From IMG/VR virus record IMGVR_UViG_3300006789_000015: a stretch of 20,000 nucleotides of DNA, one strand, 5' to 3'. This stretch comes from an uncultured virus (IMG/VR IMGVR_UViG_3300006789_000015) (Duplodnaviria; Heunggongvirae; Uroviricota; Caudoviricetes). The translations under genes were made by a program, and so were the position numbers. Below are positions 4,967 through 20,000 of the stretch, piece by piece. Numbering within the stretch: the stretch's first letter is position 1; every line of letters starts with the position of its first letter. The notes under the pieces are model-generated. The model was given only the letters and a program-made list of their open reading frames with translations. It had not been told where the DNA came from and ran no database searches.

Positions 4967-6904
4967 CTAAAATGATTTTAAATCAAACATAATTTTATCT
5001 TCACCATTATGAGTATAATTAGCGTGTCTTTGAGCCGTCATATGCGATAAAAAAAGTATATCAAAAAAGCCCTTATGGTTGCCTTGACCCTCCATTAAAA
5101 AGTGATCTTCGCACTCTTTAAAGTAAGGAATATGTTTATGAATATAAGGGTTACCATCTAGTATACTCCTGTATTCAGGTTTGCAGGAAACGTATAAGTC
5201 GTAATCTGGATAAGTCTTTTTTAAATTTTTAAACAAGCTCGTGGCCATATAAACATCCCCTGCGCTTTCTGGTATTACGTATAAGATTTTTTTACGCTCA
5301 TCATCTTCATCTACATAATCTTTTAAAGAACTGGCTTTTTCTAATTCTCCTAGAGCGACTTTACGAAAATACTTGTCTATATTTTTTCTTTTTTGCTCGT
5401 TTAATATAGGCCCATTTTCATCACTTTGGTCTTGAGCTAACTGCTCTTTCCAATACTTAAATCCGTCATCGTTCTCGTCAACATTCATTGCGAGAATATC
5501 CCTGTAAAGGGATGTAAGCCATTCGTTTTCTGGAAGGCTTATGTCAACTTCAGCGTCGGGGTTTTGCTTTTGCTTTATCTCAAGCTCTCCCTCGAAAAAA
5601 GGAGCAGAGTCTATTAACTTTTCAACTCTTTGTCCTATTTTTTCTACAGAAAAATTATCAATTACCCACTGTCTACCCTTCTTTCCTATCTCAGTCCTCT
5701 CCTCTTCAGTTAAAAAGTATACCTTTAAAAGTTGCTGGGATATAGAGTCTGAATCTGTAGACGCTTTAATAAACTCAGTTCCCGCTTCTCTATATTCATG
5801 CCAAGTTAACGGAAGTGAATGAGCTTCTTCAGCGCAAGAGTCTTCTCCACAACTATAATTTGTAACTAAAGTTATCAATTCGGTTAATTTAGCTTCTTGA
5901 ATCGGGATTTCTTGACCTCCAGAAGTAAAGGGATGACAGTAAACATCCATTAAATTATAGATTTCGTTTAACTGGTATTCAGTTACTCCACCCCCAACAC
6001 TTGTAGTATTAAGGGTTTTTTCAGTTTGGCAAAATGGGCACTTCTGCTGCTCTCCAGCAAAAGCGTTCGCTAAAAAAGCTCCACAAGCAGAGCAGTTATA
6101 AGTCGTAAGAATTTCCTTTTTATCTATGCCGTTTTCTTCGGCAAGTTTCATAATGTTCCAACCTTCATCAAAATTAGTATGAAGTAATAAATAAGTTTTC
6201 TTATCTTTCGGAAGCTGCTTTTTAAACTTAACGTACCCTTTTAACAAATTCGGAACAGATTTTCTTAACTGATTTCTAAAAACGAAACCAATGACAAAAG
6301 CATCCTGTTCTATTTTAAATATCTTTCTTAAAAGTGACCTATACTTATCGTCGTACCTAAAAAAGTCCTTCTCATTTAAACAGCCCCTAACCGTTTCAAC
6401 ATGATTAAAGCCGAGCTTATGTAAATCTTTCGTAGCAAAATCAGCCCACACCCAATAATTTTTTATTTTAGGAGCTTTACTGACAGCGATAGGTAAAATC
6501 GGCCTTGAGTCTAGGGTTGTCCAAACTACTGAAGTTATTTTATTGAACCAATCTCTATCAACACAATATTCGAGACCCCATATGTCCTGAACCCCAATAT
6601 AAACATCAGGCTTTTCCTGCTTGATTATTTCGTCAATACAAAAAGCTCCATAATTCATTCTCGCAAAAAGCTTTGCATCTTTTTGAGCTTCGTCTATCTC
6701 CTTTTGGGACATCGGTAAAGTACCGATAGTTTTCCAAGGTAAATTTTTGAAACTTGGGTGCTCTTTATTAGTACCGCAACCTAATTGAACTAAATCATAC
6801 TTTCCAGTTTTATATAAGTGTGATAAAACTAGCTTTGCGTTTTTACCAAAGCCAGTTTTTAACTGGGTATAATCGCTATGAAAAAGAACTTTTTTTTTAC
6901 GCAT
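4967..6904 (-). CDS. multidomain glycosyltransferase: GT-B/GT4-like with a Zn-ribbon insert, a DUF4214-like segment and a GT9-like N-lobe
   Basis: TGFG, KPDV, VIGFVFRNQLRK, IYNLMDVYCHPFTSGGQEIPIQEA, GRQWVIDNFS (GT4-like); CSAC...CPFC; ILYVIPESAGDVYMATSLFKNLKKTYPD...ILDGNPYI (GT9-like). The likely start is ATG 6904, overlapping the upstream stop (TAATG). Confidence 0.85.
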   Translation of the reverse strand: MRKKKVLFHSDYTQLKTGFGKNAKLVLSHLYKTGKYDLVQLGCGTNKEHPSFKNLPWKTIGTLPMSQKEIDEAQKDAKLFARMNYGAFCIDEIIKQEKPDVYIGVQDIWGLEYCVDRDWFNKITSVVWTTLDSRPILPIAVSKAPKIKNYWVWADFATKDLHKLGFNHVETVRGCLNEKDFFRYDDKYRSLLRKIFKIEQDAFVIGFVFRNQLRKSVPNLLKGYVKFKKQLPKDKKTYLLLHTNFDEGWNIMKLAEENGIDKKEILTTYNCSACGAFLANAFAGEQQKCPFCQTEKTLNTTSVGGGVTEYQLNEIYNLMDVYCHPFTSGGQEIPIQEAKLTELITLVTNYSCGEDSCAEEAHSLPLTWHEYREAGTEFIKASTDSDSISQQLLKVYFLTEEERTEIGKKGRQWVIDNFSVEKIGQRVEKLIDSAPFFEGELEIKQKQNPDAEVDISLPENEWLTSLYRDILAMNVDENDDGFKYWKEQLAQDQSDENGPILNEQKRKNIDKYFRKVALGELEKASSLKDYVDEDDERKKILYVIPESAGDVYMATSLFKNLKKTYPDYDLYVSCKPEYRSILDGNPYIHKHIPYFKECEDHFLMEGQGNHKGFFDILFLSHMTAQRHANYTHNGEDKIMFDLKSF

Positions 6905-7518
6905 TACCACATTTCATCCGTTTCTTCTTTTGTTAGTTCCGACTTAGAATCTTTTTCGTCAAAGCTACCCCAATCATCTTCAAAGTCATCTTTAGCTGCT
7001 TTCTGTTTAGTTGGGGCGGGTTTTTTGTTTGGCGACTTTTCTTCTTTTGGTTTAAAAGCGTTTAACGCAAACTGTTTATTCAAGCAATAAACAAGAAAGG
7101 TCTTTAAGTATATAACCTCAGATTCAGATAATCCAATTAATATACTAGCTTTTTGGTCGTTATTTTTATGGAAAGTACAAAGTACTCCAAAAGTAAATCC
7201 TCCTTTGGGGCTGCCAGTCTCACGATCACGATAAAGACCAAACTTAATAGATGTAGACTTTTCAGCAGTTTTATGAAAGCCCTTCCAATCTTCAGAGGTG
7301 TTAATGGAATGTATGATAGAACTAACCTCTATTGGCGTTAACTTGATTACGATATTATTTTGAGTGCTACCTCTATTTTTAGAAAAAGAGGCTCTATTTG
7401 TGCTATTATTCCAGCCGTCCTGCCTCAATAAAGAGGCCATTACTGCACCATCTTGGCTTAAATAAAACGAACAAGCTGACCCTGTTCCTTTCTTAGTTGG
7501 CTTATAGAAAGATATCAT
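6904..7518 (-). CDS. putative single-stranded DNA-binding protein, Whirly/PC4-like fold, acidic tail
   Basis: Two repeats of beta-strands followed by L.P.E / LS.SE helices; ISFYK, IKLTPIEV, GFH, GFTFGV, IGLSESEVIYL; acidic tail ending DEMW; lies next to dnaE. Confidence 0.65.
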   Translation of the reverse strand: MISFYKPTKKGTGSACSFYLSQDGAVMASLLRQDGWNNSTNRASFSKNRGSTQNNIVIKLTPIEVSSIIHSINTSEDWKGFHKTAEKSTSIKFGLYRDRETGSPKGGFTFGVLCTFHKNNDQKASILIGLSESEVIYLKTFLVYCLNKQFALNAFKPKEEKSPNKKPAPTKQKAAKDDFEDDWGSFDEKDSKSELTKEETDEMW

Positions 7519-7526
7519 AGGGGTGT

Positions 7527-7555
7527 ATTATGATTTGAATAAAAAAGTGCGTCAA
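7527..7555 (-). promoter_or_regulatory. sigma70-like promoter TTGACG-N17-CATAAT, 8 nt before ATG 7518
   Basis: -35 at 7550-7555, -10 at 7527-7532. It fills the 40-nt intergenic gap. Confidence 0.8.
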
Positions 7556-7558
7556 GGA

Positions 7559-10105
7559 TTATTTGTTTTTTAGTTGAGATAATTTTGTATAAACCTTACG
7601 ACTCTGAATTCCTATGACGTCCCCCCAAATAACGGGTATATCCCCATTCTTCTTCAATCCCTTAACAATAATGATGTCTTCTTCTTTGGGGATTCTTGTA
7701 TTCATGTCAATGCACTGTTCAATTTTTTTACTAAACAACATTACGTCTATCTTGGCTGTCTCATCTGAGACTATTAATTTAAGATATTTATTATTATTTT
7801 TTGAAACTCTACTTATGGCTTTCTCAACCACACAAGCGCAAACAACAGACATGTCAGAGTCTACTTCAAACATTCTGGAAATGTTTACTAAGGATTGTCT
7901 CTTTTTAGAAAAGACATTTTTTAGAGTGGAGCTATAACTATACCCAAGTAAATACCTTTCATAGTACCAATTAGCAAATTCCTCAGATTTACTATTTAAA
8001 ATAAAAATTTCTTTATAAAGATCAGCCTTCTTCTTTATAGTTTTTAATCTGCTCTCTTTGATGACAAGCTTTCCTTTCTCATCTTCAAATTCTATAAGCT
8101 TTTTGATAACTTTAACTAAATCATAATCATACTCTTCAGCAAACTGATAAACATATTTTTTTTCTCTAGCTGTAAGGAGGTTCCAAAGTTGTGCCTCGTA
8201 AACAATTTTGCTGCGAGACTGTTTGTATGATCCATCTAAAGCTCCAGCTTGAAGCAGAGCGCAGAGAACTCCTAAATTAACTTTAGCTTCCTCCGCTGCT
8301 TGAAAAATTTGAAACTTATTAGAGTATTCATTTTTAAAATTATTAATTTTTTCTATAGACTTTTCTGAAACGCCTTTAATTGACAAAAGCCCAAATCTAA
8401 TATCATCCCCCTCAATAGTAAAATCCATTTCTGACTTCAAAATATGAGGTGGCAATAAATTTATCCCAAAATAAGGTAGCTCTTTTTGTATTGTTGATAT
8501 TTCGTTAATAGGGTCAGGCTCATTTCTAGTCATTTTAAGTAAGGAAAGAAAAAAGCTCTTAGGGTGATTAAACTTTAAGTAAACCGTTATGGCTGCTAAA
8601 GCTGCGTAAGCAACAGAGTGAGCCTTATTGAAGGAGTAATTTGCAGAGTCTTCCAATACTTTCCAAAGGATATCTCCTATCTCTTTATCTAAATTGCTTT
8701 CTTTAACTTTTTCTTTAATCTTCTTTTTCCATTTTCTTACTTCGGAAACTTTTTTCTTACCAACTATACGGCGAAGAATCTCCGCTTCATCTAACGTAAA
8801 GCCAACTTTATTAGCCATCTGCATCATTTGCTCTTGGTATAAGCAAACCCCCCCAGTTGATGATAAAATTTCATCAAAGAAAGGGTGAATTGGCTCGTAA
8901 ACGTCTTCGTTAACGTAACTCGCGTACTGATCAACAAACTTCATAGCTCCCGGACGGGCTAAAGCAAGTACCGCACTTAATTGCTCTAGATTTTTCGGTT
9001 TAACCTTATTGCAAACCCGAAAGGCTAGGTCAGCTTCAATTTGAAATAATCCATGAGGGTGTCTAAGGTCTTGAAAATGTCTGTAAATCTCTTCACTTGT
9101 TAAATCAATATCTGACATTTTTGTGCCAAGGCTTTCGCAAGTGTTAAAAGAAACGGTTACACCCCTCAAACCTAAAACATCAAGTTTAAGGTTGTAAATG
9201 GAAGCCCAGTTCATATCAAAGGAAGAAACTGTAGACTTATCTGAAGAAAGCTCCGTAGGGCAAGTCCCATCCATCAAGTCATAAGAAAGTAAAATTCCAG
9301 AAGGATGTATTCCTTTATTTTTTATTAAAGATTTAAGCTTTAATGCTATGTTATAAGAGCTTCTATTTTCATCGCACCACTCTTTAAACTCTTTTACCTC
9401 TTCATAAGCAGTTTCAATATCTTGGACTTGACCAAAAACTTTTGGGATAAAGCTGGTTATCCTGTTCATCTCGGACTCTTCTTTTTGTCCAACTATTTTT
9501 CCGGACTCTTTTATTAACAACTTACCGCTAAGAGTATTTAAGGTTAATATCTTAGAAGTCCTTCCAAAAAACTTTTCCTCAAGATAACTTAAAACTTCTG
9601 GACGTCTATAATAGCAAATATCTAGATCAACATCACACATTAAAGCACCATCTAGATAGGTTACCCCGTCAACAACTTTTTTCTTAGCTCTAGTCTTAGA
9701 TATAAATCTCTCAAAGAACAATCCATATTTGATAGGGTCAATTTGAGTAACATTAATACAAAACAGAATTAAACTACCTGCCGCAGAACCTCGGCCAAGC
9801 CCAACTGGGATATTACTTTCTCTACAGAAATTTATAACATCCCATACTAAAAGCATATAGTCTGTAAAACCTAAATCTAAAACAGTTTTAAGCTCGTAAT
9901 CTAATCTCTCTTTATATTCTTTTTTATTAACATTTTTCTCTTTTAATCCATTTAGACATATAGATTTTAAAAAAGTAAAATTATCTACGTCTTCACTAAC
10001 CTTATTCTGGCGTTTGTATTTAACGTCAATGTCAAACGAAGGGAGCCTTACTCCATGTATGGGTAAGTCTAAAGCTTTAAATTCGTCTGTAAAAAACTTA
10101 CTCAT
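7559..10105 (-). CDS. dnaE: DNA polymerase III alpha catalytic core (palm/thumb/fingers/HhH/OB), lacking the PHP domain
   Basis: GRGSAAGS, FERF, DVDLD and KLDVLGL (catalytic Asps), LFQIE, ARPG, YQEQMM, YSFNKAHSVAY, IRFGLLSIKGV, and a C-terminal OB fold. The ORF starts at the PHP/palm junction. Confidence 0.95.
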   Translation of the reverse strand: MSKFFTDEFKALDLPIHGVRLPSFDIDVKYKRQNKVSEDVDNFTFLKSICLNGLKEKNVNKKEYKERLDYELKTVLDLGFTDYMLLVWDVINFCRESNIPVGLGRGSAAGSLILFCINVTQIDPIKYGLFFERFISKTRAKKKVVDGVTYLDGALMCDVDLDICYYRRPEVLSYLEEKFFGRTSKILTLNTLSGKLLIKESGKIVGQKEESEMNRITSFIPKVFGQVQDIETAYEEVKEFKEWCDENRSSYNIALKLKSLIKNKGIHPSGILLSYDLMDGTCPTELSSDKSTVSSFDMNWASIYNLKLDVLGLRGVTVSFNTCESLGTKMSDIDLTSEEIYRHFQDLRHPHGLFQIEADLAFRVCNKVKPKNLEQLSAVLALARPGAMKFVDQYASYVNEDVYEPIHPFFDEILSSTGGVCLYQEQMMQMANKVGFTLDEAEILRRIVGKKKVSEVRKWKKKIKEKVKESNLDKEIGDILWKVLEDSANYSFNKAHSVAYAALAAITVYLKFNHPKSFFLSLLKMTRNEPDPINEISTIQKELPYFGINLLPPHILKSEMDFTIEGDDIRFGLLSIKGVSEKSIEKINNFKNEYSNKFQIFQAAEEAKVNLGVLCALLQAGALDGSYKQSRSKIVYEAQLWNLLTAREKKYVYQFAEEYDYDLVKVIKKLIEFEDEKGKLVIKESRLKTIKKKADLYKEIFILNSKSEEFANWYYERYLLGYSYSSTLKNVFSKKRQSLVNISRMFEVDSDMSVVCACVVEKAISRVSKNNNKYLKLIVSDETAKIDVMLFSKKIEQCIDMNTRIPKEEDIIIVKGLKKNGDIPVIWGDVIGIQSRKVYTKLSQLKNK

Positions 10106-10107
10106 AA

Positions 10108-10359
10108 TTAGTTAAAAAACCCTTCGTCTTCATCATTAAAGTCCGTCTCTCCTCCTTCTTCCCCTATCTCTTGCCTAATCGTATCTATAGTCAAATTTAA
10201 AGCGTCTATTATCTCCACAGCTTCCTCTTTAGTGTTGTACTCGTAAAATACATGAACCTGATCAGCTTCTTTGCCCTTCTGTAGAAAGGACATTACGAAA
10301 CTAAAATTTTCCTTTTTGAACTTGTCGATTAAATCGTATACGTAGTCAAATGATGGCAT
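10108..10359 (-). CDS. small acidic hypothetical protein
   Basis: Gaps of 1-2 nt to both neighbours, and an acidic tail ending EDEGFFN. Confidence 0.7.
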   Translation of the reverse strand: MPSFDYVYDLIDKFKKENFSFVMSFLQKGKEADQVHVFYEYNTKEEAVEIIDALNLTIDTIRQEIGEEGGETDFNDEDEGFFN

Positions 10360-10360
10360 A

Positions 10361-10999
10361 TTACATAGATGTTTTTGCTTTTAAGGTATTCCAAACTTTT
10401 AAATTTAGCTCCAAGTCCACAATAGCATTGTGTAGCTTTTCGTAATTATGATCTATATTAAATTCTTTTCCTAATGCGGTAAGGTTTGTCCTTACCCCCT
10501 TTCTTCTAGTGTGGAGCATTTTATATTGATACTCCAAAAAAGAATTACTTAAATCATAATTAATTCCAAGCTTATAACCTCTTGCAATACTTAACGTATC
10601 TACGACTTTATTTGTGATAAAATTATAATCTTTTCCAAAAAGTTTATAAAGAGATTTAATTAAATAGATATCAAAACCTAAAACATTATGACCCACAATG
10701 TAATCACAATTAATAAACCAATCATCAATTGTCGGGAAAGCTTCTTCTGGTTTAATCCCGTCTTTATCTATTTTGCTTTGACTGTACCTTGTGATTCGGG
10801 CGGCTTCGTTACTTATCTTTAAATCTGTATCCCACTTAATATAAAAATCTTTTTCATCGATTTTTTTATTACCTTTAACTTTAATCATTGCAATTTGCCA
10901 AGGAAGATTATGGCAAGAATGAAGACAAAGGTTAAGGGTCTCGCAGTCTACAAAAGTATAAACGGTATCTGAATCAAATTTAAATAATTTATTACTCAT
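10361..10999 (-). CDS. DEDDh 3'-5' exonuclease (DnaQ/epsilon-like)
   Basis: ExoI FVDCET, ExoII VGHNVLGFD, ExoIII LHNAIVD. Confidence 0.9.
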   Translation of the reverse strand: MSNKLFKFDSDTVYTFVDCETLNLCLHSCHNLPWQIAMIKVKGNKKIDEKDFYIKWDTDLKISNEAARITRYSQSKIDKDGIKPEEAFPTIDDWFINCDYIVGHNVLGFDIYLIKSLYKLFGKDYNFITNKVVDTLSIARGYKLGINYDLSNSFLEYQYKMLHTRRKGVRTNLTALGKEFNIDHNYEKLHNAIVDLELNLKVWNTLKAKTSM

Positions 11000-11361
11000 C
11001 TAAAAAGCCTATAGCTATCTTCATCTCTATGGAATTTACTTATTTCAATAAGCGTTACATCCCCGTCTTGAGCCATTAACATATGAGCTTGACCTCTCTC
11101 CATCTCCATGCTTTCGCCCTGTCTACAGGTCATAGTAAACGGATGATGATTTGGCTCTTCTTTATTGTGCAGCATGTCCACACGTAAAACACCTTCTAGG
11201 ACATAAAATGTCTCATGCTTATCTACATGATAGTGCATTGAGCTATGACACCCCTGTTTAATAAAAAGAATCTTACCACAGTAATCTTCCCCCTCATTAT
11301 TGGCTAACCATGTTTCGTGGCCCCAATCTTTTTCTACTTTCTTTGGCCTAAACGGAACCAT
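10996..11361 (-). CDS. cupin, sugar isomerase-like (mannose-6-phosphate / D-lyxose isomerase type)
   Basis: KKVEKDWGHE, SMHYH..KHETFYVLEG, GQAH, LIEIS, DSYR. The likely start is ATG 11361, overlapping the PHP stop. Confidence 0.8.
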   Translation of the reverse strand: MVPFRPKKVEKDWGHETWLANNEGEDYCGKILFIKQGCHSSMHYHVDKHETFYVLEGVLRVDMLHNKEEPNHHPFTMTCRQGESMEMERGQAHMLMAQDGDVTLIEISKFHRDEDSYRLFR

Positions 11362-12112
11362 TTTTTTCCTTCCAACTTTCGAAACAAAATTCATCACTAC
11401 ACATATGATCTAGTCCCGGTTTATTTAACGTACTCCTATTGTTAATGCATCTAAAAGTCAGGTATGCTTTAAAATCTTCTCTGTTTTTGTAAAAGATACT
11501 TTGAGTTTTTAAAGTCTTAAACTTTCCTTCGGCATAAACCTTTACCTTTTCCGAAATTAAATTATCAAACGGTAAGTCATTATCTTCCAGAAAAAATATT
11601 GGGTCAGTAAAATCAATCTCTGGAATACATAAAGAGTCATGAAGGCAATTGTTAAAAATAAAAGAGTCGTAAAACGGGACGCACAACATCAAGTTCGGTG
11701 TCCAAAATTTCTTTAAAGATTTATAATCAATCCTAGGGTAATAATAAAAGCCGTCTTTGGCTGCGAAAGAATAAATCTTAATCAAATCATGATAGCCTTC
11801 AGTATTTTTTATAAAAATAACGAACTTGCACGTTTTCTTTAAAGACTCAGGGCTTTTGTCTTCTACGTCATTACATAAAGAAATTCTAAGCCCATAATGT
11901 AGCTCCGCTTTTGCTTCTTTAGAGTTTAAATAAGCTTGTAAAAATCCGCTCAAGTTATCCTCTAGAAGAAAAAGGTCTTTCACTTTATTTTCTTTAAGGA
12001 TGTCAAAGATAGAGTCAGCACCAAAACTTTTGTTTTCCCCTAACTCGTTAAGAGTCAGTATGCTCCTACCTATGCTGTAGTGAGATTTAAATAAAGGGAT
12101 AACGTTAAACAT
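11348..12112 (-). CDS. stand-alone DnaE-type PHP domain (N-terminal part of Pol III alpha), metal ligands degenerate
   Basis: FKSHYSIGRSIL (cf. H.HS.YSLLDG), LLEDNLSGF (cf. ITDH..L.G), HYGLRI, FIKNTEGYHDLIKIYS, GFYYYPRID, FFLE. The likely start is ATG 12112. Confidence 0.85.
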   Translation of the reverse strand: MFNVIPLFKSHYSIGRSILTLNELGENKSFGADSIFDILKENKVKDLFLLEDNLSGFLQAYLNSKEAKAELHYGLRISLCNDVEDKSPESLKKTCKFVIFIKNTEGYHDLIKIYSFAAKDGFYYYPRIDYKSLKKFWTPNLMLCVPFYDSFIFNNCLHDSLCIPEIDFTDPIFFLEDNDLPFDNLISEKVKVYAEGKFKTLKTQSIFYKNREDFKAYLTFRCINNRSTLNKPGLDHMCSDEFCFESWKEKNGSV

Positions 12113-13133
12113 CAAAATCAAAAGGGTCTTTTTTATTATTAACTTCCACCTTGGCGGCTTCAGCTTTCTCGCTGTAATCTACGATGACATTAGAGGCGTC
12201 ATTCGCGTGATGTCTAGGGCATCCCAAGTAAGTCATTTTCTTTACTTTTTGTTTGTCTCCCGCTACTAAATCATCCTTTTTTGAAGTCTTTAATAGTTTA
12301 TCGTTTTCATCATATAAAGCGTAAAAATCATATGAGTCTCTCAAGGGGCAGACCCAAGTTTTACCAGCAGCACAAAACCATTTTGTCTCAGCTTTATCCG
12401 CTGCATAATTAGAAGTTGCGTCCTGTTGGCTGAAGTTATTTACGACTTCATTTATATAAGATAAGTAATGCTCAAATCCAGATATTTCATCTTTAGTAAA
12501 CTCAAGCTCTTGAATTGGAGCTCTAGGGAATCTTAAAAAAAGAAATCGAACTTTGATCCTCTTAATCCCTTTCTTTAATTTTCTTCCAGCTAACGTGTAC
12601 ATCATAGCTTGACCGTTAGCGTGTAGCCCGTCTCCTTTGAATTTACCTTTGCTAGATTTATAGTCAGTGATTATTAAAGTATCTCCATGAAAAGCATGTT
12701 TATCTATAAATCCTCTTATTTTATATTTTAAACGCTTATTCTCTATCATAAAGCCTACTTCAGCTTCACCCAGCTTTCCCCCTTCTTCGAAAAAATCATT
12801 ATTTAAGCCAACGTAAATCATTTTATCAATTAGCTCATAATTGTCTTTTGTATTAAAATTATAATTATTTAAATGTTTATTTATAAGACGAATTATTGCT
12901 GGACAATTTTCTATAGAATGATCTTTTAATATAGCGTCATAATATTTTCTGTGACGATCCTTCATTAAAAGCTCAAATATAAGGTGACAAATAGAACCTC
13001 TAGCAGAACCTTCATTGGCTTGGTCAGGAAGTTTAAGATGATACTTAGCCCAGTAAGTCCAACTACAATCCTCAAAAGTTTTTATTTTTGACGCTGACAG
13101 TATTTGTCCTACATTTTTATTTTTTTCTGCCAT
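12105..13133 (-). CDS. PD-(D/E)XK exonuclease (RecB/AddB/Cas4-like)
   Basis: LSASKIKTFEDC, GSICHLIFE, AEV, IRGFID, ITDYKS, QAMMY, plus C-terminal cysteines. Confidence 0.88.
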   Translation of the reverse strand: MAEKNKNVGQILSASKIKTFEDCSWTYWAKYHLKLPDQANEGSARGSICHLIFELLMKDRHRKYYDAILKDHSIENCPAIIRLINKHLNNYNFNTKDNYELIDKMIYVGLNNDFFEEGGKLGEAEVGFMIENKRLKYKIRGFIDKHAFHGDTLIITDYKSSKGKFKGDGLHANGQAMMYTLAGRKLKKGIKRIKVRFLFLRFPRAPIQELEFTKDEISGFEHYLSYINEVVNNFSQQDATSNYAADKAETKWFCAAGKTWVCPLRDSYDFYALYDENDKLLKTSKKDDLVAGDKQKVKKMTYLGCPRHHANDASNVIVDYSEKAEAAKVEVNNKKDPFDFDV

Positions 13134-14026
13134 TCTATAATCTCTTCCTTCGACATTTCCCCAAAGTCATTCTTAACATCAGGTAAATGAATTGCTATCT
13201 GATTTTCGTCAAAGTACTTTAAAAACTTATTTTTTGCTTTTTCTGCAGCGCGATTCCCTACCAGATTATTATCTTTATCGTTATTGAATGCAATCACTAT
13301 TTTATCTATATCAAATCTAATCAGAAAATTTAATATCCCCAAGCTTACATCTATACCAAAAACAACAATGACATTTTTTACTCCCGCCTCCCATAAGGAA
13401 AGCATGTCTCCGATGCTTTCTACTAAAATTACATAATTAGAATTTTTTAAAATTTCAAAATTTAAAAACAAAGGGTACTTCCAGTATCCTTTATCTCCTC
13501 GATGCAGCCATTTGGGTAAAGATTTCTTTTTTCTTTCATATATATATCTACCGCTATAGCCAACTAGCTTTTCTTTAGAGTCAAAAATGGGGAATACATA
13601 TCTATTCTTCATCATGCCTTTACCACAAACCCCCCCTTTAAATAAGCGTAAAGTATCTTTAGAAATGCCTCTGTCTATCCAGTATTTATGGTCTGGCAAA
13701 AGCTCATCGAGGTACTCCTTTGGAAAGATTCTTCTATCTTTTATTTTAGGCTTAGGTTCCTCTTTCCTTTCTAAATCAAAACCATTTTTTTCTAAATACT
13801 CTTTAGCCTCAGATATATCGTTTAAATTTAAAGTTATCTTTACTAAGTCTGGTAAAAATCCTCTTACATTCTCACTGTAATCTATCCAAAACCCATTATC
13901 CTTCTTTATAACTAAAGAGTTATCATTTCCGGAATCTCTGTAAATGGGTCGAGCGCGAAACTCTTTACCATTATCTCTAAGGGTATAGCCCAGCCCTGTT
14001 AAAACATCTCTGATTTCCTCCTCCAT
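13109..14026 (-). CDS. dnaG: DnaG-type TOPRIM primase
   Basis: YWIDRGIS, RYVFPIFD..LVGYSGR, PKWLH, LFLN, VILVESIGDMLSL, IAFNND, GNRAA, KNDFGE. It overlaps the helicase stop (TAATG). Confidence 0.88.
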   Translation of the reverse strand: MEEEIRDVLTGLGYTLRDNGKEFRARPIYRDSGNDNSLVIKKDNGFWIDYSENVRGFLPDLVKITLNLNDISEAKEYLEKNGFDLERKEEPKPKIKDRRIFPKEYLDELLPDHKYWIDRGISKDTLRLFKGGVCGKGMMKNRYVFPIFDSKEKLVGYSGRYIYERKKKSLPKWLHRGDKGYWKYPLFLNFEILKNSNYVILVESIGDMLSLWEAGVKNVIVVFGIDVSLGILNFLIRFDIDKIVIAFNNDKDNNLVGNRAAEKAKNKFLKYFDENQIAIHLPDVKNDFGEMSKEEIIEWQKKIKM

Positions 14027-15534
14027 TATAAAAGCCCAAGATCGTTAGGGTCAGAGTCTTGATCATTAAAGATTTCATTTTCCCTGTCAATGACTTCTCT
14101 CAAGCTCTGCTTTTCATCTATATCAAATTTATTAACTTCAAAATTAATATAATTTTTAAAATATTTTGTAGTTTCTATCCTTCTCCCGTGAACCTCCTGC
14201 ACTATAGTTCTTCTTAAGCTGTCTTGATATGTCTCGGAAGCTTTTCCCATGCTTCTAATTTCAACAGGAATTAGCTTATGTGTCCCAAATTCTTCTCCGT
14301 CTAGCTCTCTTTCTTCTGGAGTCTTTTTTCTAAAAATGGCAACTAGTGTAGCAAACCAGTTAATTCTATCTGACAAAGCTGCTGTTGTTGAGTCATCCAC
14401 AATAGACAAAGCATCTTTCCCAAAAGTATCTCCACTTCTATTTTGCTGAAGTGCTGTGATAACTGGAGCATTAATCTCCTCCGCAATCCTTTTTAAAGAG
14501 TCTATTTTACCACCTATTACTTGATGCTCTGCCCAATTTGCCCCAAGTTTTTCTCCTGTAAGTTTAATATAATCATAAGCTATAACACACTGATTACCTT
14601 TTCCGACTTCTTTGTAATACCACCTACGTATCAGAGAGGCGATTTCGTCAATAGTTCTATTTCTTACATGGTAATGATAATAGAAACCGTCTTCCCTGAA
14701 CTCGTCCCATACAGCAGTAACTTTCTTAAACATGTCAGGGTTATCTTTATAATTACCCGTGCTTAAATACCAAAGCGGAACTCCCGTTCTAGCTGAAGCC
14801 ATTCTAAACATCACCTCTTTTGTCGGCATTTCAGTATCAAGGATAAGACATTTTATATTATTTATTTTTGCAGTTTTATAACATATGTCATTTAGCCAAG
14901 TACTTTTCCCTTGCTTCGGTCTAGCTATAATAGAATAAAGATTTCCCGATTTAAGCCCCCCGAAAAAATAATTAAATTTTTCGTAAGGAGTTTTGATTCC
15001 CTCTTCATCTTGAGGGTTATTGCCCCTCTCCTCTAGCTCATCTTTCATTTCTAGAAAGGGTTGCATAGGTTTATCTTCGAGGTCATCTGTAAGGTCTTGG
15101 TTACCGTAAATAGCATCACACCCAGAAGCTATATTACTGAAGCTCTCATTTAGATTATCTTTAATGTGACTTCTGGAATCCTGTAAGACTTTATCTAATT
15201 CTCTACACTTGTAGAGTTTTGAAACTTCATCACACGCTTCTTGCGCGGCTTCTTCATTTATAACTGATAAAAATAAATTTTCTACATAATCAAAAACATT
15301 TACTTCATCATCAAAAGAGGCTCCTAAATTTTTAATTTTATTAGCAATTAAAACTTTATCTAATTTTTCTTGATTTAATAAAGACTGCTTTGCTACTAAA
15401 AATATTGTTTCATGAAGTGAGGAATGAAAACTCTTTTCGGACAAGTAGCTCTGGACGTTAGAAAACACTGTCGGATGTTGCAAAATTCCCGACAAAGCGT
15501 GTCTTTCCAAGCGAACAGAGTGAAGATTCGACAT
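14026..15534 (-). CDS. dnaB: replicative DNA helicase (SF4)
   Basis: DnaB N-domain (ERHALSGIL, FHSSLHETIF), Walker A ARPKQGKST, LDTEM, Walker B YDYIKL, LKRIAEEINAPVITALQQNR. Confidence 0.93.
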   Translation of the reverse strand: MSNLHSVRLERHALSGILQHPTVFSNVQSYLSEKSFHSSLHETIFLVAKQSLLNQEKLDKVLIANKIKNLGASFDDEVNVFDYVENLFLSVINEEAAQEACDEVSKLYKCRELDKVLQDSRSHIKDNLNESFSNIASGCDAIYGNQDLTDDLEDKPMQPFLEMKDELEERGNNPQDEEGIKTPYEKFNYFFGGLKSGNLYSIIARPKQGKSTWLNDICYKTAKINNIKCLILDTEMPTKEVMFRMASARTGVPLWYLSTGNYKDNPDMFKKVTAVWDEFREDGFYYHYHVRNRTIDEIASLIRRWYYKEVGKGNQCVIAYDYIKLTGEKLGANWAEHQVIGGKIDSLKRIAEEINAPVITALQQNRSGDTFGKDALSIVDDSTTAALSDRINWFATLVAIFRKKTPEERELDGEEFGTHKLIPVEIRSMGKASETYQDSLRRTIVQEVHGRRIETTKYFKNYINFEVNKFDIDEKQSLREVIDRENEIFNDQDSDPNDLGLL

Positions 15535-15573: not shown

Positions 15574-18500
15574 TTAAGGTATTCTACCTATAAGGTTATA
15601 ACGATCCTCGCAATAGTAACAATTTTGTCTGTCATTGATTGTGGGGATTATACTAGTTTTCATCCCAATGACCCCATTTATTTCACCAGTCACCCTATGT
15701 AACCCCATGGCCGAAGCTCGGCCACTGCTACTTTTTCCGAAAGCCTTAGCAAGGTTGGTTTCTCTTGCTGATGACGAGGGTAATGTACCAAAATAAATCA
15801 CATCAATGTATCCCTCGTGATCGCTCCAAAATAAATCATTTCCCCCTACCGCGTACGGCGAACTTGACCAAACACTTGATAATCTAGCTTTAATGGTCTC
15901 TGCCTTGGATTCATCCCGGCCATGCTCTTCGTAATGATCGTCCTCAATAGATTTATAAACAGCTATATTCCTAGCTATCACTTCAAATCTTAAAGATTTT
16001 ACCCATACGCCCGTAAGGCCAACGCAATTATCAACACGCTCTTTATCTTCTGGGGTTAAATTTGTGTAACCCCTCGCACGGCTGAACGCTGCGGATTTAA
16101 CTTCATACCTTTTAATCCATTGTAAAGCACTATGCCCCTTGCCGCCGGTCTGCACGTAACAAATTTGATCCCTTACCGCCTTACACCAGTCTTGAGCGTC
16201 CTTTACGCTCGTAAAACTACCATTACCAAAATCCCTAGGTGTCGCGTCCCAAGTAAGTTGTGTAGCTAAAGGGTTATTAAGGATTTTCATTATCCCAATA
16301 TACCATCTCTCAAGCATGACCAACTGCCCAGAGTACCAACCATTATAAGCATCTATGACCTTACATGGGTTAGCTCTGCCTCTAGTGTCAACTTCGCTAA
16401 ATGTACTATTGACTCTTTGCCTAACTTTAGGTGCTTGATCATCTCTTGCCCAATCTTCCACTTCGTCACAAGCGGGTGTCCCATCTGGTCCTTCTATTTT
16501 GTCCCAAATGTCTACGGGATTAACTCCGCATACCCTATTAAGGTCGGCCCCTGCCCCGGTTGTCATCATAGCTCGTATCGCTCCAAGTTCCGCTAACGCG
16601 TCTCTCTTGTTGCCGTGCGTTATGCCGTGCTGCCAAGCATCTCTGAAAGCTGCCTCTAATGCTGCGCTACATCCCGTCCAATCATCAGCATTGCAACCTG
16701 CAGCAATGCCGTTATCGATTGCGGTTGGATTATACGCTTGATTAAGATCAACGAGCCCCATATCCCCAATCATTGTCAAAAACTCATACCTCATCGTCCT
16801 GAGCATGTCCATCGCTTTTCCTAGAATTAAACAATTATCTAGAAAATCTGAACAGTTATGCAGTTTTGTGTTGCCTCCGCAATTAGTAATTTGAGTATAA
16901 GTGGCTAATGTTTTTTCAGCGAGTTTAGCTTGAGAAGCTTGTACTTTTCTTAGTTCTGGACATGACCTATCAATAAATCTTCGGGCTGCCCCCAAAGTTC
17001 CTAACGTGATCACAACTTTTAGTAATTGGGCAATTGTGGAGACTATGGTAAAAAATAATCGGGCTACCGCTTGTAAAGCTCTAATCGGATTAGCGACTCT
17101 AACTAGTTTATTTAAAAGACTTCCGGAAACCTGTGCTGCTCGTCTTCTGATTTCGTCTGGATCATTGGTATCTCTCAATACGTCAAACGTTTCCGTTTCA
17201 GTATTCATCATCTCAGCAACATTTTGAACTCTATTTGTGTAAGCCCCGCTCTCCTCCTTATCTTTTTCATGGTCCCAAAATGCTCCATCAGCAACGCGTT
17301 GATAAGCACTTAATCCAGCACCCGCCACAGCGGTCATTCTTGCCGAATTAAAGCAAGTGTCCAAGAAATCACAAAAAGTATTATCTTCAAACCATTTCTT
17401 TTTCTCCCTAAACTTTGCGTGGTATAACACTATTGATTTATCACACGCATTTAAACTACTGAATTGAGCTACCTGTCCCGTATCATCAACTGTTACTAAC
17501 GGGTTTGAGCTTTGCAAGTTGCTCTCAACTTGCAAATCTAAGTTGGCAATTTCTTTTACTGCATGTGTATCATATTGACCTTTACATATTTCAATAATTC
17601 TAGCTGTTCTTGTTGGTATAACTCTCGCAATATATTCCTGCGTTGTCTCTTTGTCTCCTAAAGTTGAGAGCCCCGGAATTAAACTAGTTAGTTTTCCTAA
17701 AACGGGCACGTCATGCATGAAAGCGTGATGCCTTATTTCCATTTCGTGACGGAATTGATCAACTATTTGAAAAGATATATAGAATGGACCCATGACCATA
17801 TCGAAAGCGGTCCCCCCCATACCTTGACCAGCTAAACCTCTGGCTCCATTGTAAGAGCTTAAAGCAAACCCTGCTGCTGGACCGAACCCAATGATAAATG
17901 GAATATCAAGATGCTTTAACCAACTGGCTTGATAAACAAGTGCAACACTTGCTCCCACATCAAAAGAAATACCTCCTGTTGCCAAAAGCCCACTTTGGGG
18001 AACATTTACGCCGAGTACCGCTCTTGCATTTGATTTAAAGTATATTTTAGATTTAAGAGTTTTAAAATTTAAAATGGCATGATTGTACGTAACGTCAAAT
18101 CCAGCTTGGGAAGCACCCGTTAATGTATCATGTGACCCAAAAATTTTCATTGTTAGGTCGTAATTTTGACCTTGAATTGGCCCCCCTTTAAGGCAATAGT
18201 TAAATAAGAACTTAGCTCCACCCGTTAGGGCATTGTAATTAACTTTTATAGATTCTCCGTAGAGAATACTACATCCAAGCGTTGGTGCAAATTCTCCATT
18301 CTGCCAAACTACCCCAGCTTGTGGTGTAAATTTTGCTTTACCTGCTGATGCTTGAAATTTACTACCATTAATTTTTACCCCTAAAGCAAAGTTGCCAGAT
18401 GCATCTAAGGAAGTGTTAAAAATAAATCTGTCTTCAAAAAATTTCTTTTGCAAAGACATGTTAGCAAATACTTCTGCAGTTTTTTCTTCTCCATTTATGG

Positions 18501-20000
18501 TTGTTGTCGTAGTGCTGGAACTTCCAACATTGTACTCAAAATACCAATCATTCATGAAGTACATTTTATGGGAGACTCCGACGCTAATTACTTGAGCGGA
18601 ATAAGCGGAGCTTGGGTCGTAGTCTTCAATCTGTCGATTCCCATTTTGGTCAACGTATGCGTGTCTTTTTATGGCTCCATCGACGGAATACTTAACGTCA
18701 ACACTCACAACATCCTTCTTCAGCGTACTTCCGTTTGGGTCAACAATATCTTTAAGAATATTATCGTAAGACACTCTTGCTTCTACGGTCATGGTTTGCT
18801 GTGAGGTCGTTGGGCCGTCTGTGTCAGTAGCACTTAAGGTCATACCGTAAACAAAATTATCACCCTCAATGGCAAAACCCATTGATTGGGCTATGGTCGT
18901 CAACTTCTCTAAAGCTAACTTTCTTAATTCTCCATCTTGTGGAACAACTGCGCCGGAAGACCGATTTCCAGCTTCTGCTTCTAAAATTTCCCTATACTCA
19001 CTGTCAGGATCAAATACTGTAAACATTTGCCGCCAAATTTCTTGAGCTTCGTAAATCGTATCTTGAGTAACCGTCATGAAACTCTCTATTTGCAGGATTG
19101 ATCCGTCAATCTTAGTGTCCCAAACAGTAACTTCCTCTTGGGCATTTTCTTCAAATACTGTGTTGGCAACTCCATGCACTCTTTGACCTTTACGCATTCC
19201 ATGCGCGGTATATCTTTTCCAGACATATTTACCCATCCTCTGCTTATTATTCTTGTCTACGGAAGAGCATAAAAAAGTTCCACCTTGAAGGGAGCGAGGG
19301 TCAAAGCCGATGGCAATAACAAACTTCATAGCTGTCTCCTGAAACCAAGCTGAATTTTCAGGGACACAGTCACCCTTTCCTGTACCGCTGCAACACTGGA
19401 TTTGACCGTTTGGTTTGGGGCATGTAGAGTCTCCTGCTGTTCCGCATCTTCCAGTTTGTAATAGTCTGCTAGAATCGTAACTATACGAACTGCCTCCATT
19501 TCTCGATAAAAATTCGTCATTCTCCCCCGGCCCTGCCACCTCTTCTATTGCGAAACAAGTATGATAACTTGCATATTCGTCACCTTTAAATTTTAACGTC
19601 CCAGTATGAGCTTGGTACTGGAACATCGCGCACCCCCCTAAATCTTCTGGATCGTCTATTGTATTTGGGCTACAGCATAAACCTAAATCATCAAAGGGAA
19701 TGTCTTTTAATACAAAATCTCTGAACGGTGCAAGTAATGTTGTTCCTCCGTTTGACCCGTTAATATTTGCGTTTATAAATTCTGACCCGTTTCCCCCTGC
19801 ATAACATAATGTGAGTCGAGCGTGTCTTTTAAGATTTGGGTCAGGAGCTTCAAATATTACATCAAAATACGAAGGGTTATAATCAACACTGGCTAAATTC
19901 CCTGCATTAACTGAAATAGTCATTCCGGCGTCTTGAAAACATTCTAGCTTTACCACGCCTACCTTTATCGGATCACCCGGCGTGACTCCTGCTTTTTGTA
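15574..20000 (-). CDS. very large Cys-rich protein of unknown function (N-terminus beyond the window)
   Basis: The frame is open from 19998 (QKAGVTPGDPIKVG-VVKLECF), so GTG 19956 is probably not the true start. At least 1474 codons. No family recognised. Confidence 0.8.
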   Translation of the reverse strand, partial: QKAGVTPGDPIKVGVVKLECFQDAGMTISVNAGNLASVDYNPSYFDVIFEAPDPNLKRHARLTLCYAGGNGSEFINANINGSNGGTTLLAPFRDFVLKDIPFDDLGLCCSPNTIDDPEDLGGCAMFQYQAHTGTLKFKGDEYASYHTCFAIEEVAGPGENDEFLSRNGGSSYSYDSSRLLQTGRCGTAGDSTCPKPNGQIQCCSGTGKGDCVPENSAWFQETAMKFVIAIGFDPRSLQGGTFLCSSVDKNNKQRMGKYVWKRYTAHGMRKGQRVHGVANTVFEENAQEEVTVWDTKIDGSILQIESFMTVTQDTIYEAQEIWRQMFTVFDPDSEYREILEAEAGNRSSGAVVPQDGELRKLALEKLTTIAQSMGFAIEGDNFVYGMTLSATDTDGPTTSQQTMTVEARVSYDNILKDIVDPNGSTLKKDVVSVDVKYSVDGAIKRHAYVDQNGNRQIEDYDPSSAYSAQVISVGVSHKMYFMNDWYFEYNVGSSSTTTTTINGEEKTAEVFANMSLQKKFFEDRFIFNTSLDASGNFALGVKINGSKFQASAGKAKFTPQAGVVWQNGEFAPTLGCSILYGESIKVNYNALTGGAKFLFNYCLKGGPIQGQNYDLTMKIFGSHDTLTGASQAGFDVTYNHAILNFKTLKSKIYFKSNARAVLGVNVPQSGLLATGGISFDVGASVALVYQASWLKHLDIPFIIGFGPAAGFALSSYNGARGLAGQGMGGTAFDMVMGPFYISFQIVDQFRHEMEIRHHAFMHDVPVLGKLTSLIPGLSTLGDKETTQEYIARVIPTRTARIIEICKGQYDTHAVKEIANLDLQVESNLQSSNPLVTVDDTGQVAQFSSLNACDKSIVLYHAKFREKKKWFEDNTFCDFLDTCFNSARMTAVAGAGLSAYQRVADGAFWDHEKDKEESGAYTNRVQNVAEMMNTETETFDVLRDTNDPDEIRRRAAQVSGSLLNKLVRVANPIRALQAVARLFFTIVSTIAQLLKVVITLGTLGAARRFIDRSCPELRKVQASQAKLAEKTLATYTQITNCGGNTKLHNCSDFLDNCLILGKAMDMLRTMRYEFLTMIGDMGLVDLNQAYNPTAIDNGIAAGCNADDWTGCSAALEAAFRDAWQHGITHGNKRDALAELGAIRAMMTTGAGADLNRVCGVNPVDIWDKIEGPDGTPACDEVEDWARDDQAPKVRQRVNSTFSEVDTRGRANPCKVIDAYNGWYSGQLVMLERWYIGIMKILNNPLATQLTWDATPRDFGNGSFTSVKDAQDWCKAVRDQICYVQTGGKGHSALQWIKRYEVKSAAFSRARGYTNLTPEDKERVDNCVGLTGVWVKSLRFEVIARNIAVYKSIEDDHYEEHGRDESKAETIKARLSSVWSSSPYAVGGNDLFWSDHEGYIDVIYFGTLPSSSARETNLAKAFGKSSSGRASAMGLHRVTGEINGVIGMKTSIIPTINDRQNCYYCEDRYNLIGRIP

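Follow-up and report, generated by a model that had tools for sequence, protein, structure and literature searches.

How does a phage copy its DNA when the PHP domain of its DNA polymerase III alpha subunit (DnaE) lies in a gene of its own? The question is raised by a 20,000-nucleotide (nt) stretch of DNA, here called the window, taken from the reverse strand of IMG/VR virus record IMGVR_UViG_3300006789_000015, an uncultured member of the Caudoviricetes (36,766 bases, estimated to be ∼24% complete). A first-pass annotation, made from the sequence alone, described a modular C-family replicase assembled noncovalently from five adjoining genes, for a PHP protein, a cupin, a DEDDh exonuclease, an acidic protein of 83 amino acids (aa), and a polymerase core. 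We favor a smaller assembly and put its probability at roughly 0.78: the phage's only DNA polymerase would be a noncovalent, three-protein family C (DnaE-type) enzyme. In such an enzyme, the 848-aa core would supply catalysis through its palm, thumb, fingers, HhH, and OB regions, and the 257-aa PHP protein, having lost its metal site, would pack on the palm and thumb and serve as a docking platform. In every solved DnaE, the PHP domain packs on the palm and thumb. The 212-aa DEDDh exonuclease would supply proofreading and dock on the PHP protein by its globular domain, and neither an intein nor an RNA element would join the parts. The first-pass annotation was right in its core, an intein-free multisubunit DnaE; the inactivity of the PHP protein and the existence of single-chain relatives are additions to it.

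The DnaE core and its detached PHP protein

By its domain content, the 848-aa protein is a family C DNA polymerase of the DnaE type, with palm, fingers, HhH, and a C-terminal OB. Pfam places DNA_pol3_alpha (PF07733) at residues 45 to 312 (1e-58), recognizes the fingers (PF17657, 2e-31) and HHH_6 (PF14579, 5e-17), and finds no PHP domain. The OB at residues 764 to 816 falls below the Pfam cutoff (E of 1.7e-4), and its C-terminal position is DnaE-like. The core aligns with the NCBIfam dnaE profiles from position ∼283 to 288 to ∼1043 of 1146, with residues 385 to 958 of Taq DnaE at 9e-79, and with residues 313 to 890 of Escherichia coli DnaE; the NCBIfam polC models match it weakly, at 1e-7 at best. 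In the alignment, MCDVDLDI lies over MPDIDTDF of Taq and LKLDVLGLR lies over LKMDFLGLR, so that the DxD and third-Asp motifs coincide; we take these motifs to hold the catalytic Asp residues.

The PHP domain that usually forms the N-terminal part of the DnaE polypeptide is absent from the window core and from the core at each of 43 complete related loci (see below). The Pfam matches and the start of the profile alignment bear out the first-pass statement that the dnaE open reading frame (ORF) begins at the palm. The ORF calls and Pfam likewise agree with the claim that the PHP domain forms its own gene ∼1.2 kb upstream, the core start being 1,243 nt away from the PHP stop. On phrog_405, a full-length DnaE family of 1190 positions, the PHP ORF covers positions 63 to 292 and the core covers positions 322 to 1075. 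These matches identify the two ORFs as two parts of one DnaE, and the break maps to the linker between PHP and palm.

The PHP ORF is recognized by Pfam (PHP, 3e-8) and covers positions 27 to 252 of the NCBIfam dnaE profile, and the profile of its family matches residues 50 to 253 of Taq DnaE at 5e-11. We modeled the protein with AlphaFold 2 (AF2) from 29 sequences, reaching a predicted local distance difference test (pLDDT) value of 88.6 and a predicted template modeling score of 0.87. The best Foldseek matches of this model were the PHP domains of E. coli and Taq DnaE (E of 1e-10; template modeling score, 0.71 to 0.75), and RNase AM and other stand-alone PHP phosphoesterases followed at an E of 1e-2 or worse. 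By sequence and predicted fold, the protein is of the DnaE type. The first-pass annotation had named kinship with non-DnaE phosphatases as the contrary case, and the fold search favors the PHP domain of DnaE instead.

The active-site metal-ligand motif of the PHP domain of Pol III alpha is described as nine residues, HHDHEH[C/H]DH (PMC12926913). We read the corresponding positions from alignments to Taq DnaE and to a canonical actinophage DnaE. The glutamate of G-x-E is replaced by R79 and the next histidine by K99, D-x-H has become S208..F/Y, and E54 takes the place of the T-D-H histidine. At the N terminus, the counterpart of HxH..D is (I/L)P(L)FKSHYS(I/L)G(R/K), with I/L, L, and R/K at the ligand positions. 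Which residue stands at the C/H position is ambiguous (it may be D152), and no ligand histidine is retained. Based on the criterion of PMC12926913, we infer that the protein is catalytically dead; with the metal-ligand motif lost, it is therefore most likely a structural adaptor. The replacements are nearly invariant across the family and are common to its fused relatives, so the inactivation appears to predate the present layouts.

In a large protein database, relatives of the PHP protein with lengths of 141 to 450 aa form 1,529 clusters (at 90% identity); marine surveys contributed many of these, and some carry the source label “DNA polymerase III alpha subunit.” Certain PHP proteins (L043:6009-7364 and P0121 to P0127) have a C-terminal extension of ∼200 aa, bringing them to 451 to 468 aa in total, for which Pfam gives no match.

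Conservation and fusion of the parts in related phages

A scan of viral contigs in IMG/VR yielded 47 related loci, with cores that are 46 to 67% identical. PHP, exonuclease, and core occur together in 43 of the 47, always in that order (43/43) and never within a shared ORF (0/43). The 43 complete loci represent 37 distinct DNA stretches, and the other 4 loci are cut by contig ends. Fewer than 100 nt separate PHP from exonuclease in 19 of the 43 loci and exonuclease from core in 23. The minimal layout is PHP/exonuclease/core.

Five related records are large (99 to 203 kb; 3 of them at least 90% complete), and each contains exactly one PF07733 match, the matching ORF being 856 to 885 aa long. 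No family A (PolA) or family B (PolB) polymerase was detected in these five records, nor was a dnaN sliding clamp (0/5). The split enzyme is the sole polymerase of these phages and is thus probably their replicase. The unusual layout, in a record that is a fragment, might suggest that the split is an artifact or a sign of decay, that is, a misassembly or a broken dnaE that is being lost. We regard this as next to impossible, given the same layout in 37 distinct assemblies, the intact catalytic motifs, and the role as sole polymerase in near-complete relatives. The search for synteny that the first-pass annotation had proposed as a check therefore came out in its favor: with the same split in 43 of 47 loci, the layout is no chance event or misassembly.

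When we searched 50,697 phage records by tblastn, all matches to the core were below 33% identity, and the PHP protein gave three weak matches. Under one such weak PHP match, in Alicyclobacillus phage KKP_3916, lies a 422-aa “hypothetical protein.”

The chief reason to regard the three proteins as a single enzyme is the existence of relatives in which they are fused, either PHP to core or PHP to exonuclease to core. A search for longer relatives of the PHP protein recovered two full-length DnaEs (P0128 and P0129). On four viral contigs (L050 to L053), a single ORF of 1,364 aa comprises PHP (residues 12 to 254), RNase_T (∼260 to 460), and polymerase (504 to 1358). It lies in the same dnaB-primase-nuclease neighborhood and is 33 to 39% identical to the three proteins of the window. 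We also surveyed the 150 best representatives of core relatives (50% clusters), among which are 10 PHP-core fusions and one chain of PHP, exonuclease, and core (P0209); the other 139 have neither PHP nor exonuclease, and many of these contain inteins or are intein-broken halves. The linkers of the fused proteins read ...ESWxEK, then 5 to 15 residues, then F..EF..LP.GVRLP, which corresponds to the C-terminal end of the window's PHP protein followed by the N-terminal end of its core.

These linkers also bear on whether recoding, an intron, or a split intein that escaped detection could join the halves covalently. Inteins are rife in the core genes of this clade, and an intein breaks the core of one relative (L044), which makes such joining conceivable. 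Yet the window's PHP protein ends within ∼10 residues, and its core starts within ∼5 residues, of the point at which the fused relatives continue, and because both ends abut the fused-relative linker, there is no room for intein halves. Pfam detected no Hint or intein domain in the PHP ORF or the core, no Rfam family (introns included) matched positions 7000 to 12600 of the window at E values up to 0.1, and whole conserved genes stand between the halves. We find covalent joining hardly credible. As a positive control, the same Pfam library detected Intein_splicing/Hint in the broken core of L044, and the first-pass description of a DnaE split without an intein holds.

The L044 core is encoded in two ORFs of 592 and 389 aa (L044:3726-6701), broken at about residue 497, at a site reading YSFNK. 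The first ORF ends in the Intein_splicing/Hint match, and a split intein is the probable cause of the break. In P0128, P0129, and many representatives, this site is occupied by a whole mini-intein, and the inteins of the clade's cores lie at about residues 105 to 115, 440 to 470, and 495. At another locus (L012:7036-9610), the core is read in two frames (residues 5 to 135 and 137 to 847), likely because of a frameshift or a sequencing error.

To place the fusions on a phylogeny, we built a core tree from match columns (123 rows by 841 columns) in a short IQ-TREE search under LG+G4, without bootstraps. Salmonella and Streptomyces-phage DnaE served as outgroups, and 31 incomplete rows were left out, as was P0131, which was misaligned; a FastTree analysis of 124 rows agrees with this tree. 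PHP-core fusion requires six changes on the tree, and the triple fusion requires one, on a branch with a support of 100. By equal-cost parsimony, seven changes are needed if the ancestor of the clade was split versus nine if it was fused. Split and fused forms thus appear to have interconverted at least seven times. An old split with repeated re-fusion is mildly favored, and the direction of change is tentative because the tree search was short and had no bootstraps. For one PHP-core fusion (P0135), the viral-contig scan held no close contig, and a single metagenome scan returned only a window-type relative (L056, 57% identity) and distant DnaEs.

The DEDDh exonuclease and the genes between the parts

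The 212-aa protein has the sequence of a DnaQ-like DEDDh 3′-5′ exonuclease. Pfam assigns RNase_T to residues 16 to 202 (1e-14), and the protein matches phrog_192, “DNA polymerase exonuclease subunit.” The NCBIfam model for epsilon matches at 5e-18, below its curated cutoffs, and the exonuclease part of polC matches at 8e-12. Residues D18 and E20 (Exo I), D110 (Exo II), and H190 and D195 (Exo III, H-x4-D) do not vary among 29 sequences. Conservation in the alignment runs through to the end of the protein, and there is no C-terminal extension. Since the RNase_T domain fills the protein, a C-terminal tether of the E. coli epsilon type appears to be absent.

We predicted the PHP-exonuclease complex with each partner supplied as a 29-row alignment, in three runs and three controls. 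The complex score was 0.85 in each of the three runs and 0.00 for the best control. In calibration, the mark for this score was reached by 116 of 157 solved complexes and by 2 of 215 mismatched pairs, figures that apply only roughly to predictions from our own alignments. The runs shared at least 92% of their contacts, with a pLDDT of at least 86 for the partners. Predicted contacts involve PHP residues 159 to 162, 182 to 188, 217 to 221, and 232 to 243 and exonuclease residues 23 to 30, 107 to 129, and 153 to 165, all in its globular domain. The prediction supports binding of the exonuclease to the PHP protein through that domain.

This prediction speaks for PHP-exonuclease binding only and would also suit a different arrangement, in which PHP and exonuclease form a separate proofreading or repair nuclease acting in trans and the core is a PHP-less polymerase. 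Consistent with such a nuclease, PHP is directly adjacent to the exonuclease in 19 of the 43 loci. Against it stand the fusions of PHP to core without an exonuclease (10 among the 150 best core representatives, plus P0129), the chains in which all three are fused (L050 to L053 and P0209), and the location of PHP within the polymerase chain in every matched solved DnaE. We judge a nuclease acting in trans to be unlikely and retain the three-protein polymerase as the better account.

Several points nonetheless weigh against that account. The case for PHP-core binding is drawn from fused relatives and from knowledge of solved DnaE structures. Neither predicted interface is enriched in conserved residues: 6 of 21 PHP interface residues are at least 90% conserved (55 of 257 overall), as are 4 of 22 in the exonuclease (40 of 212 overall). 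Part of the complex score may stem from resemblance to alpha-epsilon or PolC structures already solved. The PHP protein is called dead on the strength of its motif, and metal binding by E54/D55 and D152 is still conceivable. Finally, the PHP-core fusions indicate that the exonuclease need not sit between PHP and core.

The first-pass annotation correctly gave the order PHP, cupin, exonuclease, 83-aa protein, and core with overlaps or 1- to 2-nt gaps, in agreement with the ORF coordinates (PHP and cupin overlap, cupin and exonuclease overlap by 4 nt, the exonuclease and 83-aa ORFs are separated by 1 nt, and the 83-aa and core ORFs are separated by 2 nt). This tight, operon-like packing is what would speak for a five-part replicase, with the cupin and the 83-aa protein (p83) as further polymerase subunits.

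The 133-aa cupin ORF is placed in the cupin superfamily by its matches: Cupin_2 at 27.3 bits (cutoff, 27.2), Lyx_isomer at 6.5e-8, WbuC below its cutoff, and phrog_7851 at 3e-25, with the motif HYHVDKHE in the translation. Beyond the window, it is present in only 2 of the 43 related loci. Its PHROG recurs in a sugar-modification cluster elsewhere in the window's own virus record, where a second phrog_7851 cupin is encoded at L049:5053-5400. In other loci, the same slot holds glycosyltransferases, a carbamoyltransferase, a T5orf172 protein, or a PD-(D/E)XK endonuclease. The cupin is therefore probably sugar-related cargo and no part of the replicase. The long cluster, in the part of that record outside the window (L049:1-16758), encodes two epimerase-like proteins, an aminotransferase, a methyltransferase, the second cupin, an acetyltransferase, and a 442-aa glycosyltransferase.

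The p83 family has a better claim to a role, as it recurs between exonuclease and core in 21 of the 46 loci that hold both, and by position p83 could, as we presume by analogy, be a theta-like partner of the exonuclease. However, the exonuclease-core gap is below 100 nt in 23 of the 43 loci, which leaves these without a p83 at that place. The first ∼65 residues of p83 are conserved, and its tail is acidic in the window versus lysine/arginine rich in relatives. The AF2 model has a pLDDT of 68.8 and a helix-hairpin-helix layout, no PDB fold matches it at an E of 1e-3, its Atlas clusters are unnamed, and there is no Pfam, PHROG, or NCBIfam match. We consider p83 a frequent but dispensable, optional accessory.

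A five-part replicase is highly unlikely on this evidence. Of the modular noncovalent enzyme first described, the PHP/exonuclease/core part stands, upheld by the fused relatives and the complex prediction, and the cupin and the acidic 83-aa protein drop out, the former through its rarity and its recurrence in a sugar cluster and the latter through its presence in 21 of 46 loci and its unconserved acidic tail. The other loci also carry an unnamed family of 155- to 203-aa proteins (17 loci). The PHP/exonuclease and exonuclease/core junctions are drop-in sites for cargo, including homing-endonuclease genes.

Known polymerases and the surrounding locus

The closest functional likeness is to the E. 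coli Pol III core, which consists of alpha (DnaE1), epsilon (DnaQ), and theta. Both pair an inactive PHP with a separate DnaQ-type DEDDh proofreader, and both have the domain order of a DnaE-type core. In E. coli, epsilon attaches to the inactive PHP of alpha (PMC3664792, PMC2528190, PMC3919608), to which it is tethered by a C-terminal segment (PMC2528190, PMC3664792). Unlike in E. coli, the phage PHP is a protein of its own, and the 212-aa exonuclease lacks the 57-residue C-terminal tether of epsilon, its contact with PHP being predicted to run through the globular domain instead.

PolC of Firmicutes is likewise a family C enzyme with an integral DEDDh domain, and its coarse order of PHP, exonuclease, and palm is that of the window's genes and of the L050 to L053 chain. 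However, the PolC exonuclease is inserted within the PHP domain (PMC3919608), whereas the phage exonuclease follows a complete PHP. Our PHP family profile matches PolC (9qpc) at 373 to 462 and again at 639 to 684, with the interruption at profile position ∼94 to 110. The OB fold is N terminal in PolC and C terminal in the phage core, as in DnaE. The earlier suggestion that the gene order echoes PolC is accordingly sound for the coarse order and fails in these two respects.

In Bacteroidetes DnaE1, a DnaQ-like domain lies N terminal to PHP, with a linker of ∼60 residues, and arose independently of PolC (Timinskas et al. 2014, PMC3919608). The likeness is that of a DnaE-type polymerase with a DnaQ-like domain in its own chain. 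The exonuclease lies between PHP and palm in the phage single chains and is a separate gene in the window.

DnaE encoded in pieces is known from cyanobacterial dnaE-n/dnaE-c and from “fractured” DnaE genes in marine metagenomes (Dassa et al. 2009, PMC2677866), and relatives in the present clade also have inteins and intein-broken cores. Those pieces carry split-intein halves, are spliced, and break inside the polymerase, whereas the break in the window lies at the PHP/palm linker. PHP does not occur in PMC2677866 (0 occurrences). Rossellomorea phage phiT1 has two proteins annotated in GenBank as “DNA polymerase III subunit alpha” (gp20 and gp18, 573 and 469 aa), also broken inside the polymerase, and PHROGs includes part-length DnaE families (phrog_11165, phrog_12219, phrog_13169, and phrog_7513). 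Compared with other two-gene phage DnaEs, the specific features here are the conserved exonuclease gene between the halves, the apparently dead PHP, and the single chains of PHP, exonuclease, and core. We found no paper on a stand-alone phage PHP subunit or a PHP-exonuclease-palm chain in a search that left most subscription journals outside its reach. The layout is visible in public records, where the Joint Genome Institute labels the small PHP protein “DNA polymerase III alpha”; applied to a protein of ∼250 aa, this pipeline label hides the split.

A wider reading, to which we give somewhat less than even odds, is that in a very large clade of ∼100- to 200-kb uncultured phages, PHP is a free-standing dead adaptor that holds a tether-less DnaQ proofreader, and that PHP, exonuclease, and core were repeatedly re-fused. 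One product would then be a third independent route, besides those of PolC and Bacteroidetes DnaE1, by which a family C polymerase gains an integral proofreader. On this reading, in-place fusion of subunit genes can give rise to PolC-like architectures, and the split and fused versions would show how multidomain replicases are assembled and disassembled in evolution. To our knowledge, no bacterial Pol III alpha has given up its PHP domain, not even an inactive one, and we know of structural roles of PHP probed so far only by mutation inside the chain. With separable natural parts, the long-standing question of why PHP domains invariably persist without activity would become testable: a detached dead PHP, an adjoining proofreader gene, and natural single chains would make a clean system for the roles of PHP in stability, docking, and fidelity.

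Table 1. Genes of the replication block and its flank, in window coordinates
Feature	Position	Strand	Remarks
DnaB helicase	14026-15534	minus	Pfam, PHROGs
DnaG-like primase	13109-14026	minus	Pfam, PHROGs
PD-(D/E)XK nuclease	12105-13133	minus	Pfam, PHROGs
Stand-alone PHP protein	11348-12121	minus	257 aa from TTG at 12121; 254 aa from the first ATG, at 12112 (end coordinate of the first-pass annotation)
Cupin	10996-11397	minus	133 aa from GTG start
DEDDh exonuclease, DnaQ-like	10361-10999	minus	212 aa
83-aa ORF (p83)	10108-10359	minus	No match in Pfam, PHROGs, or NCBIfam
DnaE core	7559-10105	minus	848 aa; palm, thumb, fingers, HhH, C-terminal OB; without PHP
204-aa conserved protein, acidic tail	6904-7518	minus	Directly downstream of core; no match in Pfam, PHROGs, or NCBIfam
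Glycosyltransferase-like protein	4967-6910	minus	647 aa; weak match to phrog_2170

The helicase, primase, and nuclease genes adjoin PHP upstream in one tightly packed block (Table 1), and this order is kept in related loci. Promoter-like sites (31, versus a shuffled mean of 30.5) and terminator-like sites (5 versus 4.4) showed no excess. The 204-aa protein follows the core in many related loci, and its acidic tail has an aromatic end. Whirly is the label of one Atlas cluster (at 0.92), in which 13% of the members carry PF08536; as a lead only, the protein may be a candidate single-stranded DNA-binding protein of the phage. In most related loci, the 647-aa protein (44 to 58% identity) is encoded after the replication block, and a role in DNA or virion glycosylation is a possibility. 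Farther out, the minus strand of the window encodes a 1,460-aa ORF at 15574 to 19956, which has no PHROG match and a G+C content of 0.39 to 0.45 (0.32 to 0.37 elsewhere), and, at 533 to 895, an HNH endonuclease gene (phrog_2255, 3e-21) beside a phrog_3980 gene that is cut by the window edge.

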